Part shown: positions 201 through 12,859 of the stretch, piece by piece | Layout of the letters: every line of letters starts with the position of its first letter | Numbering within the stretch: the first letter of the stretch is position 1 | DNA from: Dongiaceae bacterium | Lineage (GTDB): Bacteria > Desulfobacterota > Desulfuromonadia > Geobacterales > Pseudopelobacteraceae | Direction: 5' to 3' | Assembly (NCBI GenBank): GCA_035571735.1 | Contig: DATNCC010000174.1 | Coordinates: forward strand, 1-63,141 | DNA length: 63,141 nt | The notes under the pieces: generated by a model | Databases searched by the model: none | What the model was told of the DNA's origin: nothing | The model's input: only the letters and a program-made list of their open reading frames with translations | Position numbers and translations under genes: made by a program

Positions 201-734
201 TTATTTCAATCGTAACGGAATCCCGCTGATGACGACATGCGCCTCGTCTGCCGCCTCCGCCAGGGCCTGGTTCGCCGTTCCGGCGATGTCCCGGAACATC
301 CGCGCCAGGCTGTTGTCCGGGACGATCCCCATGCCGACCTCGTTGCTGACCAGAATAACCGGCGTCGCCATCTCATGCAGCGTACTCTTCAAACGCTGCA
401 GATCCTCATGAATCCGCTCTTCACAGCTTCCGGCAGCGTCTTCATATTCGAACAGCAGGTTGGAGAGCCAGAGCGTAACACAATCAACAAGTATTACCTT
501 ATACAGGCCATCACACCTCGCCAGCGCCTGTGACAGATGCAGCGGCTCCTCGATCGTGCTCCATTCGGAGCCGCGCCGTTCCCGGTGCCGCCTGACCCGT
601 TCATCCATCTCGCCGTCAAGAGTCCGGGCCGTCGCCAGATAGCCGAGCGGCGCCCCGAACTCCGTCGCCAGCTTTTCGGCGAAGCCGCTTTTACCGCTGC
701 GTGCGCCGCCGGTTATGAAGATTGTGCGTGACAT
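201..734 (-). CDS. cobU: adenosylcobinamide kinase / adenosylcobinamide-phosphate guanylyltransferase
   Basis: 177 aa. P-loop GGARSGKS at the N-terminus; length and overall sequence fit CobU/CobP. Preceded by a cobalamin riboswitch. Confidence 0.85.
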   Translation of the reverse strand: MSRTIFITGGARSGKSGFAEKLATEFGAPLGYLATARTLDGEMDERVRRHRERRGSEWSTIEEPLHLSQALARCDGLYKVILVDCVTLWLSNLLFEYEDAAGSCEERIHEDLQRLKSTLHEMATPVILVSNEVGMGIVPDNSLARMFRDIAGTANQALAEAADEAHVVISGIPLRLK

Positions 735-803: not shown

Positions 804-864
804 GAAAACCGGGGATTCAAATACGATCGGGCTTCGGCCCCTCGTTCCACGGAGGTCCCAAAAC

Positions 865-1035
865 AGTAGCGGAATGGCAGGTTTCCTGGCTCCAGGGTCA
901 TCTTACTTGCCGCGCCTTCCCGGAAAAATCCAGTGGCTCAAGTTGCGGCGTTCATCGCCTGTTACAGTTGCGGGACAGCGAGGGAGTCACACCCTCTTCC
1001 CTTTTAACCGTGCCTGCGGGGCACGGCACCAAAAC
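865..1035 (-). promoter_or_regulatory. cobalamin (AdoCbl) riboswitch aptamer
   Basis: Minus strand reads GGTGCCGTGCCCCGCAGGCACGGTTAAAAGGGAAGAGGGTGTGACTCCCTCGCTGTCCCGCAACTGTAAC...GAGCCACTGGATTTTTCCGGGAAGGCGCGGC. It contains the conserved core and the B12 box GCCACTG. Located upstream of cobU-cobT. Confidence 0.85.
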
Positions 1036-1195
1036 CGCGTGGTACAACAATTGTGGTGAAGTTTGTAACAGACAGGACAGATGAAAGTCAAAAGGAAATT
1101 GACGTTGTCCTCCGCACCAGCCCCGACAAAATCGGGACAAGTGCGTTAACGAAATTATTCTCTGCTAAATACCGCAGAAAATAATTTCTAACTTA

Positions 1196-1399: not shown

Positions 1400-1540
1400 T
1401 AGAACCCCCTGTTGATAATTTAACTATTTGACAATTTCCAGAACTATGATAGAACGGCACGATTTGTATACAATAAGATTTTCATAATTTCTATATTCAT
1501 GCTGATTTAAATCTGTCAATAAATCGATAAAGGGCGGCCT

Positions 1541-3997
1541 ATGACAATACGATTCAAGCTAAACGCCAACATGGCTCTCATGGCTATCGGCATACTTGTT
1601 ATAGCAGGATTCAGTCTTTCCGGCATGAAATTCGTTCAGAACAAGCTCCATGTTCTTACCGAGAAATCGACCCCCTACCAGCTGAAAACCATCGCCCTGC
1701 AGCGCACCCTTCAAGAACATATTTCAAACCTGCTCAAAGCCTCCGCCGCCACAACGGAAGCAGAAATAAACCTGTTACGCGATGAATCGGGCAAGAGCCT
1801 TGCTGAAGTGCGCAAGGTATCATCCGAGGTTGCAGCACTCAAGGGTGGTGGCGAAAACGGCACCAATCTACAGGAACTGGAGAAGATCACCAGCGATATT
1901 ATTTTGACCGTTACCGAGCGAATAAAAGCCGAGACCGCAGGAAAAGCCGCCCATGACCTGATTAACGAAAAATTGAGGCGTGTCCAGATCGGACTGGATA
2001 AAATGGCCGGCAATATGAAGGGCAACCAGAAAAAACTGGTAGGCGAACTTTCATCCTCCAACGACAGCGTTAAACGCAGTTCCATCAAGAACAATCTTAC
2101 CCAGGGCGTTATCAGCTCCCTGAACGAAATCAAGGTGGCCCTCCTCGAAATTGCCGCCGCCGACCAGAAAGCCCAGATTGATGCCTGTGTCGCCCGGTTC
2201 AATTCTGCTGCACAAGCATCGACAAAAAACCTGTTCATGCGCACGGAGAAAAACACTCCGGTAGGCAGGGAGATCACCGCGGTCATCAGTGATGTGACAA
2301 AAGGAGTCACAGGAGCAGGGGGAATCGCCGAATTAAGGACTGAGGCGCTGATTAAAACCGATGAAGGCACCAGAAGCAAGTGTTCACATGAAATCGGCAC
2401 ATCGGTACAGAAAATTGTCCGCCTGATCGGTGTAGTCGGCGAATACGCCGCTAAGGCGAACGAGAGTTCAAAGGAAGATGGCAGGAAGTTCGACAAATCT
2501 CTGGAAAGCTCCGTCATGCTTAGCGACTATCTGTCGGGTAACACGGAACTCATAAGTTATGGCGGCAGTATCAACGATTCCATCAATAACATGTTCTATG
2601 GCCGCACCGCTGCAGAGCTTGATTCCGCTAAAAACAGGGTATCATCACAACTGGGCAAGGCTACCACACTGCTTACGACACGCATGAAGAACATCGAAGG
2701 GGCCGGCGGATTGGCTACACTCCTTCGTGAAGTTCAGACTACACTCATATCCACCAACGGAGCCTACGACAAGCTGAGCCGCATCATCGTGGTCAACAGA
2801 CAGCTTGTCGATCTAAACGGCAAACTGAAAACCCTGGTTATGGAGCAGCGCAAGGAGGGAGAAGCCGGCATGACCTCCGCACGCATAGATCAGGAGAACG
2901 CCGTCAAGTCCGTCAACAAGGTCTTCCGCTCCAGCATCATCGGAGTGTTTGTCATCGGTCTGGCGGTGCTGGTCATCGGAGTGGCTTTCAGCGTGATCGT
3001 GGGACGATCCATCACCAAGCCGGTACTGGAACTCAACCAGCTGGCCGAGCGTTTCGGCAACGGTGATTTCAAATGCAACATGGACGCATCCCGCAGGGAT
3101 GAATTCGGTCAACTGGCGGGGCATTTCAACACGGCATCAGCCCGGATCCGGGACATCGTCGTCGACCTCGCAACCGCCATAGGGCAGCTCAAGTCCAGTT
3201 CGGACAAGTTGAGCGGAACGTCGGAACGGCTTCGCCAGGGGGCACAGGAGCAGTCAGCCCAGGCCGAACAATCGGCCACGGCGCTCGAAGAGGTCAGCAG
3301 AACCGTAGTAGATGTGGCTCAAAACGCCGGACAGGCCGTAACGGTGACCCGTGACTCCTCTTCGGTCGCCGCGCAGGGTAAGATAACCGTCATGGAGGTT
3401 GTTGACGAGATGAACCAGATCGCGCAGTCGGTTGGTGAAACCGCGGATGTGGTGCAGAAACTTGGCGACAGTTCCGAGCAGATCGGCAGCATCGTCGACG
3501 TCATCAAGGACATCGCCGACCAGACAAACCTGCTGGCGCTCAATGCCGCCATTGAAGCGGCCCGGGCCGGAGAATCAGGCATGGGCTTCGCTGTCGTGGC
3601 AAATGAAGTCCGAAATCTGGCTGGCAGAACCACCGAGGCGACCCGGGAAATTGAAGAGATGATCAAGACGATCCAGTCGGAAACCGCCAATTCCATCCGG
3701 ACCATGAACCATGGACGCCAACTGGTTGGCAGAGGGGTCGAGCGGGCCCAGAACGCTCAATCGGCGCTGGAGTCGATTGTAACCGCCTCGGATAGCGGCG
3801 CAGTCATGGTGGAATCCATCGCCACCGCCTCGGAAGAGCAGTCGGCAGTTATCAGGGACGTTGCTGCAGGGGTTGAACGCATGGCAGAGCTGACCAGGGG
3901 AGCTGCAGACGACAGCAGACATATATCGGCGGAAGCCGGGGATTTATCACGCATTGCCGAAGACCTCGGCCGTAAGGCGGCCTGGTTCAAGTTTTGA
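1541..3997 (+). CDS. methyl-accepting chemotaxis protein with a large (~440 aa) helical periplasmic sensor
   Basis: TM segments near aa 10-30 and aa 465-490, followed by HAMP. Conserved MCP signalling hairpin [37 protein letters not shown]. Confidence 0.9.
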
Positions 3998-4046: not shown

Positions 4047-4412
4047 ATGAAGCGACTGATTTTTACCGCGAGCCTGATTGTCCTTGTCGTCGGAACCGTG
4101 TCCCCAGCCCGGGCGGAACTCAAGACCATCGGAACCGGCGCCAACATGAATGTCGATATTACCGGTTTCCCCCCCGCCATGAAGGAAATTTACCCGCTTT
4201 TTGTAAAAAAATGTATCAAGTGCCACGGCATGGACAGGACTTTTGTCACCATCCAGACCGGTATGACTCCATCCGGTTCGGTATTCGACAATGCCGCGGT
4301 TGATGCGTACGGCTCCAAAATGCTCCGCAAACCGGATGCCGACATGACCAAGCAGGATGTAAAGAAATTCATGGAACTTATGAAATTCATGCTTGATGAA
4401 GCAGCGAAATAA
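4047..4412 (+). CDS. small periplasmic monoheme c-type cytochrome
   Basis: ATG at 4047 preceded by AAAGGAGAGG. Signal peptide MKRLIFTASLIVLVVGTVSPARA; single CIKCH motif; 121 aa. The track ORF's upstream extension overlaps the MCP 3' end and was dropped. Confidence 0.75.
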   Translation: MKRLIFTASLIVLVVGTVSPARAELKTIGTGANMNVDITGFPPAMKEIYPLFVKKCIKCHGMDRTFVTIQTGMTPSGSVFDNAAVDAYGSKMLRKPDADMTKQDVKKFMELMKFMLDEAAK

Positions 4413-4470
4413 CCTGCGACTTGCAACCTATTTATTGAAGGTGCTTGAAATACTTTTGGAGGGTTCACAA

Positions 4471-5811
4471 ATGAAGATTATTACTTCCGGAATGCTGCTC
4501 CTGCTGGGGGGTTTCGCAACCTCTGCAATCCTGTTATTGCCGGATCCCGCTCAAGCGATCCCTGCGTTTACCCGTCAATTCAAGACGGAATGCTTCACTT
4601 GCCATACGATTTTTCCCGAACTGACCGAGCAGGGCGATAACTTCAGGAGAAATGGCTATGTCTGGCTGGAAACCAAGGGCACAGCCAAGCCTGCAGCAAA
4701 AAAAGATGAAAAAAAGGATGGCAAAAAAGGGCTCAACGAGCGGGAATATCTTGTCCTGTCGAGCCTGCCTGATTATGTCCCGTTATCAATAATCGGCACC
4801 TTTAATGCGTCTTATGCGGATAATCGTCCGGAAAATGAAGGCAACCGGTTTGATCTGGCGACAAGAGCCGTAGTGCTGGATGCGGGCGGTAGTTTTAACG
4901 ATAAAATGGGGGCATGGATAAGCTACAACCTGTTTTCGGAAGGGATGTTCAATCATGTCACCGGCGGCTCCGCCCTGAATGCCAATGTCCCCTCCAATAA
5001 CATCCCGGATATTAACGAGGCGTTTGTCCAGGCGCGTCATCTGTTCGATTCTCCTGTAAATGTCAAGGTTGGCCGTTTCACACCTACTCTCTCCCTCTGG
5101 AAGACAACCAACAAGACTTCTCTGGCCTCCCCCATGGCTACAACCAGCTATCGGGTTGGTGATTCACCATTTTATGTCAATGCCGCGACTGACGGGGCGG
5201 AGTTGAATTCGATTCTCGGCGGGCGACTGGCTGTGGCTGCAGGTATGGTCAAGGTCAAGGATCAGAGGAATCTTTCCGGCTACGGCAGCATCCAATACAA
5301 ACTTGGCGGGGCTGATTTTGAAGGGCATGAAGCTGCTGTCAATATGGACGCCGAAGAAAGTATTTTTGACTATCTGACCGTCACACTTGGCGGCTATGGA
5401 TATGCCGGCAGTAATAACCCCGGTGCGTTCAGACAGTTGAACAACTTTTATCGCTACGGCTTTGAAGGGGATGTCCGATACCAGAAATACAGGGTAAAGC
5501 TGGCCAGTGCCTTTGGAACGGACGACAATTCGTTAGTATCGAACGCTTTCCCGAACGGTGGACAATGGATCAATAAAAATTCACAGGTCTATGCCGCAGA
5601 AGCGCTTTATCTCTTCGGTTCGCAATTCATTCCCTCGTTCCGGTTTGAATACGAAGACAACGGGACTACCAATACCCGCCGCTACATCCCGACTTTGGCA
5701 TATGCAGCACTCCAGAACGCCAAACTCGTTCTCGAATACAAGCGGGAAAACACCTCCGGCAACAGCATGGACAACAACACGGTCAACCTCGCTCTTACGG
5801 CGACCTTTTAG
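4471..5811 (+). CDS. outer-membrane beta-barrel protein with N-terminal CxxCH (fused cytochrome-porin architecture)
   Basis: ATG at 4471 after GGAGGG. Signal peptide ends ...PDPAQA. CFTCH lies within 15 residues of the mature N-terminus, followed by a Lys-rich linker KPAAKKDEKKDGKKG. About 400 aa of beta-strand-like sequence ends in LALTATF (OMP beta-signal with terminal Phe). Confidence 0.7.
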   Translation: MKIITSGMLLLLGGFATSAILLLPDPAQAIPAFTRQFKTECFTCHTIFPELTEQGDNFRRNGYVWLETKGTAKPAAKKDEKKDGKKGLNEREYLVLSSLPDYVPLSIIGTFNASYADNRPENEGNRFDLATRAVVLDAGGSFNDKMGAWISYNLFSEGMFNHVTGGSALNANVPSNNIPDINEAFVQARHLFDSPVNVKVGRFTPTLSLWKTTNKTSLASPMATTSYRVGDSPFYVNAATDGAELNSILGGRLAVAAGMVKVKDQRNLSGYGSIQYKLGGADFEGHEAAVNMDAEESIFDYLTVTLGGYGYAGSNNPGAFRQLNNFYRYGFEGDVRYQKYRVKLASAFGTDDNSLVSNAFPNGGQWINKNSQVYAAEALYLFGSQFIPSFRFEYEDNGTTNTRRYIPTLAYAALQNAKLVLEYKRENTSGNSMDNNTVNLALTATF

Positions 5812-5866
5812 GCTTGCGGCAATGTTGTTGATTTCTGTCCAAATTAATAGCCACAGGAGACAATGG

Positions 5867-7648
5867 ATGAATTCCATACGTTTCACTTGCTTGGGAATTT
5901 TATTTCTTTTTTTAGCGCTTTTGAGCGGCTGTGGCGACGGTAACTCAGGGACCTCGGGCAGCAGGGCAACTCTCAAAATATCCCAGCTGTGTATTGATTG
6001 TCACGCCGGGGCCAACGATCCGGTTGTCGCGACTGCAAAGATAACCGAAGAATGGAAAATTTCGAAACACAATTCGGAAATAGTCGGCGCCGGCTGCATT
6101 GACTGCCATGAGCCACAGGTTGGCCATCCGAATGTTTGCAGCAGGTGTCACGGTGGCGCTCCGTCGGCATTCAACGCAACCGGGACCGATGTGGTTCGCA
6201 ACCCTGATGCAGAAAAAAAATGCTACAAATGTCATGGCGCAATAACACTCAGTCCGGGGCATTTTACCAACAATACCTCTGCAAATGCACCAGGTTCGTT
6301 CGTCTCCAGAAACTACGCAAACAAATGCAGAGCCTGTCACAACCCCCACGACGTGACCACGTTGCTGCCGATCAACAGGGATTGGGCAAAGTCCGGTCAT
6401 GGCAACCCAAATGGCGCGGCCTGGCAGCACTATGATTTTAAGGGGGCGGATCGCCTTGCGTGCATGCGTTGTCATACCGCCACCGGATACATTAATTTTA
6501 TTACCGGTGCAGAAGGGGCTACAGCCTCGAAAATGTGGACAACTACCACCGACAAGACCAAGGAAGTACTTTCCTGTATTGCCTGTCACGAAACATACGA
6601 CTTTAAAAACAGTGTCCGCAAAATCGGAGCTTTTACAGCTCCGTACAATGCTCCTAACACCTTCCCCAATGTAGGCGCTTCCAATCTCTGCATTGCCTGC
6701 CACTCCGGCCGCGAGAACATGGCTTCCATCCTGGCCATGACCAACATGTCCGGTGCGACCAGCCCCACACTCAAGAATTCGCACTATATGGCCGCGGCCG
6801 GTCTCATGTACATGACTACCGGTTTTACCAATTTCACCACCATGACTACCAAAGCTGCCGCCACCAATACTTATGGTGCCTCTTACACCATGTATTACGG
6901 ATCGGGGACGGCTCCGACAGGCAACATCAGCAGTACACACCGCAAACTGGGTACGCCGATGATAAATGGCGACAGTCACAACCCGGCCGCCTTTGTCCCC
7001 GGCAGTTTCGATGCAGACGGTCCTTGCGTCACCTGCCATATGAACGCCACGGGTCAAGCCGACCGCAAGACCAGCCACACCTTTGGCATTAACGCAAATG
7101 CCTTTAATCAACTTTGCATCAAGTGCCACGGTGCAGAGGGAACCACGACCCTTACCGGCGACAATTTTGAGACCGTCTTCATCGAAGAGCAGTCACTTGT
7201 GTTCCAGAATGCACTCAGTCTGGCGATTAAATTACTGAAAGACAACTATGGCATTACCTATGATTCTGCAACAAATCCTTATTTCTTTAATGCGAACGGC
7301 AAGAGCGTTACCAACTGGAAGCGTGGCCGCAGCAATGCCGAGGCAAAGAAACTGATGGGAGCCTGCTACAATATCAACCTCCTGAAGAGGGAGCCGGGAG
7401 CCTATGCCCATGGCCGCACCTTCGTGCGCCGGTTGATCTATGACACCATCGATTACCTTGATGACGGCAAGATCAACATGTCAACCGGAGCCACGGCACT
7501 CGCATCCGGAATGAAGGGCCTGAACAATGCCGTGATCTATGTCAAGGGGACGTCGGCAAATGACCCCGCCACTACGGCAAGCTACACCTATCTGGCTGGA
7601 TACAACCGCACCTCGGGGGCCTGGAACACACCTTATGAAAGGCCCTGA
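5867..7648 (+). CDS. decaheme c-type cytochrome lipoprotein
   Basis: ATG at 5867 after AGGAGA. Lipobox LLSGC. Ten CxxCH motifs: CIDCH x2, CSRCH, CYKCH, CRACH, CMRCH, CIACH x2, CVTCH, CIKCH. 593 aa. Confidence 0.85.
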   Translation: MNSIRFTCLGILFLFLALLSGCGDGNSGTSGSRATLKISQLCIDCHAGANDPVVATAKITEEWKISKHNSEIVGAGCIDCHEPQVGHPNVCSRCHGGAPSAFNATGTDVVRNPDAEKKCYKCHGAITLSPGHFTNNTSANAPGSFVSRNYANKCRACHNPHDVTTLLPINRDWAKSGHGNPNGAAWQHYDFKGADRLACMRCHTATGYINFITGAEGATASKMWTTTTDKTKEVLSCIACHETYDFKNSVRKIGAFTAPYNAPNTFPNVGASNLCIACHSGRENMASILAMTNMSGATSPTLKNSHYMAAAGLMYMTTGFTNFTTMTTKAAATNTYGASYTMYYGSGTAPTGNISSTHRKLGTPMINGDSHNPAAFVPGSFDADGPCVTCHMNATGQADRKTSHTFGINANAFNQLCIKCHGAEGTTTLTGDNFETVFIEEQSLVFQNALSLAIKLLKDNYGITYDSATNPYFFNANGKSVTNWKRGRSNAEAKKLMGACYNINLLKREPGAYAHGRTFVRRLIYDTIDYLDDGKINMSTGATALASGMKGLNNAVIYVKGTSANDPATTASYTYLAGYNRTSGAWNTPYERP

Positions 7649-7695
7649 TTACAGGAGCTGCCCGTTCGAGTAAAGGACTGAAGCTTAGGATTCAG

Positions 7696-7738
7696 CAAAC
7701 AAATAAGGCCCACCGAATCGTGGGCCTTATTTGTTTGC
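7696..7738 (+). terminator. intrinsic terminator after the cytochrome cluster
   Basis: CAAACAAATAAGGCCCAC-cgaatc-GTGGGCCTTATTTGTTTG, an 18-bp stem with a T-rich 3' arm. Confidence 0.8.
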
Positions 7739-7857: not shown

Positions 7858-8616
7858 ATGTTCAAGAGTACATCCTTACTGACAGCAGCAACCCTGGCCA
7901 TAACCACGTCACTGGCAAACGCGGCCGAGATCAAACTGGGCGGAGGAGGAGCGGCAGTTGCTACGGTATTCTCTCCGGTCAAGGCCTCCTTTGAAAAAAC
8001 CACCGGCAATAATCTAATCATCCTGCAGAGCACCCCTAAGGATGGCCTCAAGCAGCTCTGGAAAGGCGATCTGGATGTGGCGGTAACCTCCGTAGATCTG
8101 GCGGGCATGATTGCCGGAGCCGCCAAAGATGGCATCATTGTCGACAAAGCCGCCCTGCAAATCGTTGAGATCGGAACCAACAGGACAGTCGTCCTGCTTC
8201 ATCCGTCCAACCCCGTAACCAGCCTGACCAAGGAGCAGATGAAAGGGCTCTTCACCGGCAAGATCACCAACTGGAAGGATGTCGGCGGCAAAGACGCCCC
8301 GGTGCTTGTTGTATGGGGTAAAAACTCCCCGGGACAGAATGACCTCTTCACCAATGTAATCCTGGATGGCGAGAAGATCGTTGACGAAAACCTGGATACT
8401 ACTGATTACAAAGGGATCAAGGATACCGTGGCGACCAACCCTGAAGCGATCGGTATCGATCCGCTCGGCATGATTGACGAGTCGGTCAAGGCCATCAAAC
8501 CATCACCTGAAGCCAACAGCCCGATCCTGCTGATCACCAAGGGGGCGCCATCGAAGCCGGTCAAACAGCTAATCGACTTCATCAAGACAGCAGGAAAGAA
8601 GTACATCAAAGAGTAG
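7858..8616 (+). CDS. periplasmic substrate-binding protein (PstS-like PBP fold), no adjacent transporter genes
   Basis: RBS AGGAGG. Signal peptide ending ...SLANA. The sequence pattern resembles phosphate-binding-protein-like domains; this is recognition only. Confidence 0.55.
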   Translation: MFKSTSLLTAATLAITTSLANAAEIKLGGGGAAVATVFSPVKASFEKTTGNNLIILQSTPKDGLKQLWKGDLDVAVTSVDLAGMIAGAAKDGIIVDKAALQIVEIGTNRTVVLLHPSNPVTSLTKEQMKGLFTGKITNWKDVGGKDAPVLVVWGKNSPGQNDLFTNVILDGEKIVDENLDTTDYKGIKDTVATNPEAIGIDPLGMIDESVKAIKPSPEANSPILLITKGAPSKPVKQLIDFIKTAGKKYIKE

Positions 8617-10559: not shown

Positions 10560-10636
10560 TGGTGCGCCTGGAGCGATTCGAACGCCCGACCTACGGATTC
10601 GTAGTCCGTTGCTCTATCCAGCTGAGCTACAAGCGC
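10560..10636 (-). tRNA. tRNA-Arg (anticodon ACG)
   Basis: Minus strand reads GCGCTTGTAGCTCAGCTGGATAGAGCAACGGACTACGAATCCGTAGGTCGGGCGTTCGAATCGCTCCAGGCGCACCA. It folds by hand into a cloverleaf with anticodon loop CTACGAA and an encoded CCA. Confidence 0.95.
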
Positions 10637-10797
10637 ATTGGAACTAGTCTTATAACGTACCATACGGAATATTTCAACCATTTTTTTACGAATTTCCCGT
10701 TTTACTCACACGCATGCCTGATTTTCTTCTACCCTATCGGTCCATTTTCGGATATTCTAATAAATTCGAACCACGTCATTTAGCATTAAGGTTAAAA

Positions 10798-11115
10798 ATG
10801 GAACACTTTATTCTGGAAATCAGCGAAGCGGAAATCAAACGGGAACGGGAGAAATCGAGGGAACTTCGCAAGAGCCGCTGGTGGAAGAACCGCCTGGCCC
10901 TGGGGCGTTGCCACTATTGTAACGGGAGGTTTGCTCCGGAAGAATTGACCATGGATCACCTGGTCCCTGTGTCGCGCGGCGGCAAGGCATCTCGTAACAA
11001 TGTGGTTCCGGCCTGTAAGGAATGCAACAGCCGCAAGAAATATCTGCTTCCGATCGAGTGGGAAGAATATCTGGACAAGCATGAGAGTCCGGTACCGGAG
11101 TTAACGAGTGCATAA
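10798..11115 (+). CDS. small HNH endonuclease
   Basis: CHYCNGRF...MDHLVPVSRGGKASRNNVVPACKECNSRK, i.e. HNH with two CxxC pairs. 105 aa from ATG 10798. Confidence 0.8.
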   Translation: MEHFILEISEAEIKREREKSRELRKSRWWKNRLALGRCHYCNGRFAPEELTMDHLVPVSRGGKASRNNVVPACKECNSRKKYLLPIEWEEYLDKHESPVPELTSA

Positions 11116-12550: not shown

Positions 12551-12859
12551 ATGATTCGATCTGTGCTTGTTTTTGTGATGGTACTTGGAATTTCTGGAAT
12601 ATCGATGGCTGCACAGGAAGAAAAAATAGTCACCAGTGGACCTGAAATCATTATACACAAAATGGATGGTAAGCCGCTTGAGTTAAAACACTGGGAACAT
12701 CAGAAGAGAATGAAAAAGGGTGGGTGTACCAATTGCCACCGAGGGGAAATCGGCAAGATCGAAGGGTGGAATAAGGAATTTGCCCACATGGTATGCATCC
12801 CGTGTCATGACCTTAATGACAAGGGTCCTGTCAATTGTAAAGAATGCCACAAAAAATAA
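12551..12859 (+). CDS. periplasmic triheme cytochrome c (c7/c3 family, PpcA-like size)
   Basis: Signal peptide, then three CxxCH motifs (CTNCH, CIPCH, CKECH) in an ~80 aa mature protein. Confidence 0.8.
   Translation: MIRSVLVFVMVLGISGISMAAQEEKIVTSGPEIIIHKMDGKPLELKHWEHQKRMKKGGCTNCHRGEIGKIEGWNKEFAHMVCIPCHDLNDKGPVNCKECHKK

Follow-up and report, generated by a model that had tools for sequence, protein, structure and literature searches.

Gene content and transcript signals

The present analysis concerns three adjacent genes on contig DATNCC010000174.1 (assembly GCA_035571735.1), a stretch of 63,141 nucleotides from an organism catalogued as a Dongiaceae bacterium and placed by GTDB in the Geobacterales, family Pseudopelobacteraceae; this whole stretch is referred to as the window. 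The three genes, g1, g2 and g3, bring together, as judged by homology, an outer-membrane pore of the Cyc2 family and a multiheme lipoprotein of the type found in porin-cytochrome complexes (Pcc). All are encoded on the plus strand. The first, g1 (4047-4412), encodes a secreted monoheme c-type cytochrome of 121 amino acids (aa), g2 (4471-5811) a Cyc2-family fused monoheme cytochrome-porin of 446 aa, and g3 (5867-7648) a decaheme lipoprotein of 593 aa. Coordinates and counts were taken from the open reading frame (ORF) table and from an independent translation of the window, and agree exactly with the first-pass annotation, which had described a 121-aa secreted monoheme protein, a heme-bearing barrel and a lipoprotein (593 aa) in which CxxCH occurs ten times, tightly spaced with gaps of 58 nt between g1 and g2 and 55 nt between g2 and g3. 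The CxxCH motifs of all three genes are kept across their relatives and are, therefore, not chance occurrences.

Operon signals for g1-g2-g3 comprise these short gaps, a GGAG-type ribosome-binding site before each of the genes and a strong hairpin located 3' of g3 (7695-7738, plus strand). A closing terminator with an 18-bp stem had been proposed at first; the strong hairpin stands, although its stem is a perfect 19 bp (GCAAACAAATAAGGCCCAC / GTGGGCCTTATTTGTTTGC, with the loop CGAATC) and there is no trailing T-run, as a consequence of which it was not called by a simple terminator scan. The 122-nt region containing the hairpin folds with a dG of -46 kcal/mol (z = -5.7 relative to shuffled sequences), and the hairpin is probably the end of the transcript.

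The Cyc2-family heme-porin

The product of g2 carries a signal peptide (…PAQA|IPAF), one CFTCH, located at residue 41, and, as is usual in outer-membrane barrels, Phe as its last residue. Its order is signal peptide, AIPAFTRQFKTE-CFTCH-TIF-PEL, a Lys/Glu-rich linker and a predicted barrel of 16 strands that ends in the terminal Phe. In an alignment of 26 g2 homologues (A1), every sequence has the single heme motif, and the same holds for virtually every full-length g2 ORF in the 80 loci of the synteny scan described below. The N-terminus is the best-conserved part of the protein (AIPAF[T/S]R-x5-CxxCH-x3-PEL); from position 29 to position 64, 24 residues are invariant.

Keffer et al. (2021; PMC8406198) define Cyc2 by a signal peptide, one CxxCH and a length of at least 365 aa, together with the motif AxPxFAR[Q/K][T/Y] five residues before the heme site and PxL four residues after it, and by a 16-strand barrel resembling OprO/OprP. 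The g2 protein possesses every one of these features with the exception of the strict FAR. It exceeds the minimum length, and the PxL motif is present at the expected distance past CxxCH, with P49, E50 and L51 all invariant. The upstream motif reads AIPAFTRQF, with the published spacing to the heme site and with Thr replacing the Ala of FAR; relatives of g2 can have Ser at this position and F, H, Y or N at the last position of the motif. Canonical FAR forms among these relatives are found at L022 and at L080, the latter being the most divergent locus, with AIPAFAR and a g2-g1 pair without g3.

An AlphaFold2 (AF2) model of g2 built on A1 contains 16 long strands, with a predicted local distance difference test score (pLDDT) of 68.7. 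Searching with this model, Foldseek ranked OprO (4rjx) second, with a TM-score of 0.54, among general 16-strand porins, and OprO (4rjw) was also the best sequence match in the Protein Data Bank (PDB; phmmer E = 5e-5). Scans of the Pfam and NCBIfam libraries assigned no family to g2, and Pfam Porin_O_P was found on some of its homologues. An exhaustive family profile search recovered 3119 relatives, and 652 proteins were obtained at E <= 1e-10 in the hidden Markov model search; among 149 newly listed representatives of the family, 71 carry the canonical FAR and 32 carry FSR or FTR. The comparison with Cyc2 was made through canonical-motif relatives, in place of the characterised Acidithiobacillus ferrooxidans and PV-1 Cyc2 proteins. 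Alignment of A1 by hhalign with one such relative, P0336 (canonical AIPAFARKY), gave a probability of 99.8% and E = 4e-29 over 409 columns, with the match spanning both the heme peptide and the barrel. Since the published features are present bar the Ala of FAR, the barrel is OprO-like and the homology to canonical-motif proteins is full-length, g2 is, on sequence grounds, a Cyc2-family fused cytochrome-porin and belongs to a Geobacterales subclade marked by AIPAF[T/S]R. This subclade would be dropped by the published PxFAR filter.

The linker between the heme peptide and the barrel (window 4660-4755, residues ~65-95) is of low complexity and rich in Lys, Glu and Ala. Across the g2 clade its length varies from ~30 to 90 or more aligned positions (A1 columns 95-190), whereas canonical-motif relatives have a conserved Trp/Pro-rich stretch at the same site. 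A flexible linker could permit another position of the heme in the g2 clade.

The periplasmic monoheme cytochrome

The g1 protein begins with a signal peptide of the Sec type (…SPARA|ELK) and contains a single CIKCH. Members of its family, of ~120 aa, retain exactly one heme motif, and C56, C59, H60, M92 and M100 are invariant among them. Given the invariance of Met92 and Met100, g1 is likely to be a class-I-like monoheme cytochrome with His/Met ligation. The library scans of Pfam and NCBIfam gave only sub-threshold hits for g1, with no family above cut-off, and sequence and profile searches of the PDB gave no match below E = 0.4, so that g1 cannot be assigned to any solved cytochrome, such as those of the OmcF or PccH type. 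The family comprises more than 1000 database clusters, of which those with names are Geobacteraceae, and g1 adjoins g2 in 64 or more of the 80 loci. The first-pass annotation had remarked that a one-heme periplasmic partner and a heme-bearing porin would set this gene set apart from Pcc, and the translations do give one CxxCH each for g1 and g2.

The decaheme lipoprotein

The lipobox of g3 reads LLSG|CGDG, with Gly at +2 after the lipid Cys, and the protein contains exactly ten CxxCH motifs (the median among its relatives is also ten), with no CxxxCH and no CxxCK. Pfam finds generic multiheme domains in g3 and, over residues 386-537, c552 (26 bits against a cut-off of 24.1); this C-terminal third is helical and NrfA/c552-like. 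Nothing significant was obtained with g3 by phmmer against the PDB (E of at least 0.035), and the only matches of its AF2 model (pLDDT 68) in Foldseek were non-significant ones to NrfA (E about 0.08, TM about 0.25). An NrfA-type enzyme was considered for g3 and rejected, given the lack of CxxCK and the weak, non-significant NrfA matches. The heme spacing of g3, with a gap of 112 residues and a helical C-terminal domain, appears unlike the layout of MtrC, and homologues of g3 give only faint hits to PF22113.

The g3 family is also found in a different genetic setting. Geobacter pickeringii (CP009788, locus L081) has a full-length orthologue of g3 (42% identity, E = 2e-147) in the outer-cytochrome position, where it stands third in a canonical Pcc cluster in which a TetR regulator is followed by a 403-aa heme-less barrel, a 225-aa eight-heme periplasmic cytochrome and the g3-family lipoprotein. 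The same Pcc arrangement with a g3 orthologue is seen at L084, a contig bearing a protein named for G. benzoatilyticus. Full-length identities of the g3 orthologues in Pcc clusters are 42-48%. These Pcc-embedded proteins are 45-48% identical to the Cyc2-linked g3 proteins and nest among them in a rough neighbour-joining tree without bootstrap, and it is on this basis that one family of lipoprotein cytochrome is seen to have two kinds of neighbour, the porin pair of a classical Pcc or a pore of the Cyc2 type. Thus, the hybrid of Cyc2 and Pcc suggested in the first-pass annotation is upheld by homology on both of its sides, through the membership of g2 in the Cyc2 family and through the g3 orthologues in the outer-cytochrome position of Pcc.

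The G. pickeringii locus contains tandem canonical Pcc clusters behind the TetR gene (L081:3290-12384). The first has the g3-family lipoprotein, with nine CxxCH, and the second an unrelated lipoprotein of 730 aa with ten CxxCH. The ombB-omaB-omcB architecture by which Pcc clusters are defined was set out by Shi et al. (2014; PMC4245776), who found the outer cytochromes of these clusters to be diverse and not to co-evolve with their porins. The tandem clusters of L081 exemplify swapping of the outer cytochrome.

Conservation of the gene set in Geobacterales

Synteny was scanned in one genome per species, giving 80 Geobacterales loci. By local tblastn and clustering of these loci, the g2, g3 and g1 genes form one homology cluster each, present in 75, 68 and 64 of the 80 loci, respectively, and most absences fall at contig ends. 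A synteny search had been named beforehand as a check whose negative outcome would speak against the triad; the three genes were found to be adjacent in about 70 of the 80 species-level genomes. Carriers include Geomonas, Citrifermentans bremense, Geotalea toluenoxydans, Oryzomonas japonica, Geobacter sp. AOG1, Geobacter sp. OR-1, Geomobilimonas, Geothermobacter and many metagenome-assembled genomes (MAGs).

The loci fall into three classes of gene order. In class A (about 40 loci) the order is a DUF4388 protein, a protein with seven transmembrane (7-TM) segments, g3, g2 and g1. In class B (about 28 loci) g3 is divergent from g2 and g1, which are followed by a PstS-like binding protein in some cases and by a methyl-accepting chemotaxis protein (MCP), the latter present in 23 of the 26 testable loci. 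Class C, with the order MCP, g1, g2, g3, hairpin and binding protein, consists of the window and L001, a boreal-lake Geobacteraceae MAG. The g1-g2-g3 order of the window is, therefore, rare, and g3-g2-g1 or a g3 divergent from g2-g1 are the commoner forms. Because linkage of the triad outlasts three gene orders, it can be argued that there is selection on co-occurrence, or functional coupling, and chance adjacency was rejected on these synteny data. At L008 (4163-5926), L037 (4289-6035) and about 28 other loci with the order g3-g2-g1, two conserved genes precede g3, neither of which is present in the window. They encode a DUF4388 protein of 321 aa and a protein of 249 aa with ~7 TM segments and no Pfam family. 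DUF4388 may be a signalling-type domain.

A proposed electron-transfer module

The reading that we favour, with a confidence only a little above even, is that the locus is an outer-membrane electron-transfer module, in which the Cyc2-like g2 and g1 replace the heme-less porin and the periplasmic multiheme cytochrome of Pcc. Electrons would be exchanged by g3 with the heme of g2, at the barrel or within it, and by that heme with g1 in the periplasm, with g1 serving as the dedicated soluble periplasmic partner of g2. Classical Cyc2 is predicted to handle dissolved Fe2+ only; as a surface cytochrome, g3 would open a Cyc2-type pore to redox partners that are solid or macromolecular, such as iron minerals, humics, electrodes or other cells. 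As regards direction, the likely His/Met ligation of g1, together with the potential of +208 mV for Cyc2PV-1 (PMC8406198), appears to tip the balance slightly toward an inward flow, serving uptake of electrons, oxidation of Fe(II) or sensing of redox state, and away from bulk Fe(III) respiration.

The module so proposed shares features with several known systems. In common with Cyc2 of A. ferrooxidans and Mariprofundus Cyc2PV-1 (PMC8406198), g2 has the single N-terminal CxxCH, the PxL motif, the AxPxF-R spacing and a 16-strand OprO/OprP-like barrel, shows full-length profile homology to canonical-motif proteins, and has a small monoheme cytochrome of the periplasm as its partner, just as Cyc2 has Cyc1. 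It differs in having F[T/S]R in place of FAR and a variable Lys/Glu/Ala linker in place of the Trp/Pro-rich stretch, in its Fe(III)-reducing Geobacterales hosts, and in adjoining a lipoprotein of 9-10 hemes and often a chemoreceptor. The likeness to Pcc (OmbB-OmaB-OmcB; PMC4245776) lies in the combination of a barrel, a periplasmic cytochrome and a multiheme lipoprotein, and the g3 family is itself the Pcc lipoprotein in G. pickeringii and on the second contig. However, the g2 barrel has 16 strands and a heme, as opposed to 18-22 strands without heme, g1 has one heme, as opposed to 5-14 in the periplasmic partner, and the gene order of the triad differs from that of Pcc and varies among genomes. 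BLAST revealed no significant similarity of g2 to the two porins (403 and 405 aa) found at L081, or of g1 to the eight- and nine-heme periplasmic cytochromes of that locus. Geobacter Pcc clusters of the OmbB-OmaB-OmcB type were reportedly the subject of work by Liu et al. in 2014. With MtrCAB, MtoAB and PioAB the triad shares, in concept, a barrel with cytochromes and a decaheme lipoprotein outside (MtrC), whereas the locus contains no MtrA-like decaheme gene and the barrel has 16 strands, as opposed to 26-28. A further comparison is with GM18_3465 of Geobacter sp. M18, a proposed porin-like 10-heme outer-membrane cytochrome (PMC4245776), which likewise has heme and barrel in one polypeptide and comes from Geobacter clusters for extracellular electron transfer (EET), but is predicted to carry ten hemes in the loops of a 21-strand barrel, as compared with the one N-terminal heme of g2.

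Several observations weigh against an electron-transfer module. A single heme may not be able to bridge the membrane to an extracellular cytochrome, since the barrel is narrow, far narrower with its 16 strands than the porins of Pcc or Mtr, and holds one heme only, and since published models of Cyc2 place the heme at the periplasmic mouth (PMC8406198). The AF2 models of g2 and g3 are mediocre (pLDDT 68-69), and residues 23-101 of g2 mostly have a pLDDT < 50, leaving the heme peptide unmodelled. We infer surface exposure of g3 from a single source, the position of its orthologues in other clusters, and its weak NrfA-like C-terminal region would equally suit a redox protein facing the periplasm. 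Two loci, L072 and L080, have g2-g1 without g3 despite full flanks, and are the only such loci. Moreover, the window derives from a soil metagenome and its sequence was found only in DNA runs of soil and rhizosphere metagenomes and in no RNA runs, and the genes around the triad in the various genomes (MCP, binding protein, DUF4388) are sensory and not respiratory.

The question of which way g3 faces leads to a rival explanation, that of a classical Cyc2 pathway, in which g2 would oxidise dissolved Fe2+ in the pore and reduce g1, while g3 would face the periplasm on the inner leaflet of the outer membrane as an electron sink, capacitor or reductase. Membership of g2 in the Cyc2 family accords with such a pathway, as does the small size of g1, which, with its single heme and probable His/Met ligation, resembles the periplasmic partners of Cyc2; pairing of Cyc2 with Cyc1 is described in iron oxidisers (PMC5566968). 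In addition, no single heme would need to span the membrane, and both the c552/NrfA score of the C-terminal third of g3, which lies just above the Pfam cut-off, and the sole, weak structural match to NrfA are compatible with a periplasmic redox protein. Nevertheless, orthologues of g3 hold the outer-cytochrome slot of canonical Pcc clusters, g3 has neither CxxCK nor any other catalytic-heme signature, and the Foldseek matches to NrfA fall short of significance. Most of the carriers are also not known to grow by Fe(II) oxidation. Overall, we consider a classical pathway with an inward-facing g3 to be rather improbable.

Linked chemoreceptor and binding protein genes

The functional unit is probably larger than three genes, since other genomes, too, have members of the families of the neighbouring MCP and binding protein together with g1 and g2. 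In the window, the gene for an MCP of 818 aa (1541..3997, plus strand; Pfam HAMP and MCPsignal) ends 49 nt before g1. The protein has a large periplasmic region (~residues 30-470) without domain assignment, followed by the HAMP and MCP signalling domains. Within these 49 nt nothing resembling a terminator was called by the scan, and the MCP gene is, for this reason, apparently co-operonic with g1-g3. A sigma-70-like promoter match upstream of the MCP gene (ATGATA-17-TACAAT, 1446..1474, plus strand), which comes from a consensus scan only, is a possible start of an MCP-g1-g2-g3 transcript. Downstream, 210 nt from the triad and beyond the hairpin, lies a gene for a PstS-like binding protein of 252 aa with a signal peptide (7858..8616, plus strand; PBP_like_2, Pfam PF12849), which scores under the cut-off of the NCBIfam PstS models.

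In other genomes, the MCP gene directly follows g1 in 23 of 26 class B loci, and in L001 it directly precedes g1, as in the window. The gap between g1 and MCP is 0 nt in Geomonas sp. RF6, with the MCP gene beginning at the base after the end of g1. Arrangements of g2-g1-binding protein-MCP or g1-binding protein-MCP occur at L002, L023, L026, L049, L055 and L085. At L026 (2038-9374) the set is split, with g1 accompanying the binding protein and MCP and g2 accompanying g3, and at L002 (4628-5917) a second pair of g1 and binding protein is present upstream of g3; on account of these two loci, there are hints that g1 has a partner besides g2.

Such linkage raises the speculation that the locus is a sensor for redox taxis, in which the Cyc2-like g2 and g1, with g3 as a surface antenna, feed a chemosensory pathway and not a respiratory conduit. 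The linked MCP would read the redox state of g1, or a ligand on the PstS-like protein, and cells would thereby approach or avoid Fe(II), minerals of Fe(III), electrodes or anions that have been released. We regard this as unlikely. The uninterrupted approach of the MCP gene to g1 in the window is in keeping with it, as are the one-strand g2-g1-(binding protein)-MCP order of most class B loci, the abutting genes in RF6, the association of g1 with binding protein and MCP at L026 and L002, and the DUF4388 and 7-TM proteins that class A carries instead; a path with one heme would also fit low-flux sensing. Conversely, about 40 class A loci have neither MCP nor binding protein nearby, the periplasmic domains of the MCPs are poorly conserved among loci, such that only the HAMP and signalling domains align, and the MCP has no heme motif. 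MCP genes are, moreover, very numerous in Geobacter genomes. A sense organ for extracellular redox conditions, with g3 sampling minerals, humics or electrodes, g2 relaying the potential to g1 and MCP driving taxis, is similarly an improbable proposal, in which the PstS-like protein would, in some genomes, join the MCP in reading g1.

The binding protein, together with the OprO-like barrel, also brings into question whether g2 could be a porin for anions (phosphate-type) whose heme is regulatory and which works alongside the PstS-like protein, the cytochromes being merely co-regulated. Among PDB sequences OprO matches g2 best, and in fold it is among the top matches, some homologues carry Porin_O_P, and the PstS-family gene close downstream of the triad recurs in about 8 loci. 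However, all Cyc2 proteins share an OprO/P-like fold without being phosphate porins (PMC8406198), the binding protein falls under the PstS cut-offs, and neither pstCAB nor pho genes were found beside the set in the loci inspected. An anion porin is very improbable, given that conservation in g2 is strongest in the heme peptide and that most loci do not have the binding protein.

Other genes were noted in the window and at the divergent locus. Genes for a CheA-like protein, CheB and a hybrid kinase lie 4-8 kb upstream at L080 (44-3939), and provide a loose context only; the 616-aa gene after g1 at this locus was considered as an MCP and not counted, as it has no Pfam hit. In the window, a 102-aa secreted protein with three CxxCH is encoded at 12551-12859 (plus strand) and its match to Cytochrome_C7 falls slightly under the cut-off; this protein is probably a triheme cytochrome of the PpcA-like kind, which is the usual periplasmic carrier of Geobacter. 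A CobU gene (201-734, minus strand) has a cobalamin riboswitch upstream of it (859-1048, minus strand; Rfam RF00174, 113.7 bits), and a tRNA gene (10563-10636, minus strand) adjoins a small HNH endonuclease gene (10714-11115, plus strand).

Implications for electron transfer and taxis in Geobacterales

Cyc2 is a marker gene for microbial Fe(II) oxidation and is thought to act alone on dissolved Fe2+, whereas the Pcc and Mtr complexes are the accepted route by which electrons cross the outer membrane to solids. At the locus described here, organisms that are classic Fe(III) reducers combine a pore of the Cyc2 type with a multiheme cytochrome of the Pcc type; this pairing is conserved and widespread, and occurs in about 70 species-level Geobacterales genomes, including those of cultured Geomonas, Citrifermentans, Geotalea and Oryzomonas. 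The kinds of component are known and the combination appears to be new: in a literature search of incomplete coverage, no description was found of a multiheme lipoprotein and a protein of the Cyc2 type being conserved together in Geobacterales. He et al. (2019) reported Cyc2 homologues in some Fe(III)-reducing taxa, with Geobacteraceae not among them. A lake study from 2025 tabulated one or two 'oxidative EET' genes in Geobacter MAGs, and these could belong to the g2 family.

If the parts work together as an electron-transfer module, they would constitute a third design for electron transfer across the outer membrane, and possibly the means by which a Cyc2 pore reaches solid substrates. Any calls of Cyc2 made with hidden Markov models in Geobacter genomes would need another reading. 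Through the linkage with MCP, taxis can be connected in a testable way to redox chemistry outside the cell, and several of the carriers are cultured. Chemotaxis of Geobacter toward Fe(II) and metal oxides has long been known; should the locus prove to be a sense organ, it would provide a molecular route for this behaviour, and many of the assignments of Cyc2 to iron oxidation in metagenomes of iron reducers would instead represent devices for sensing or uptake.

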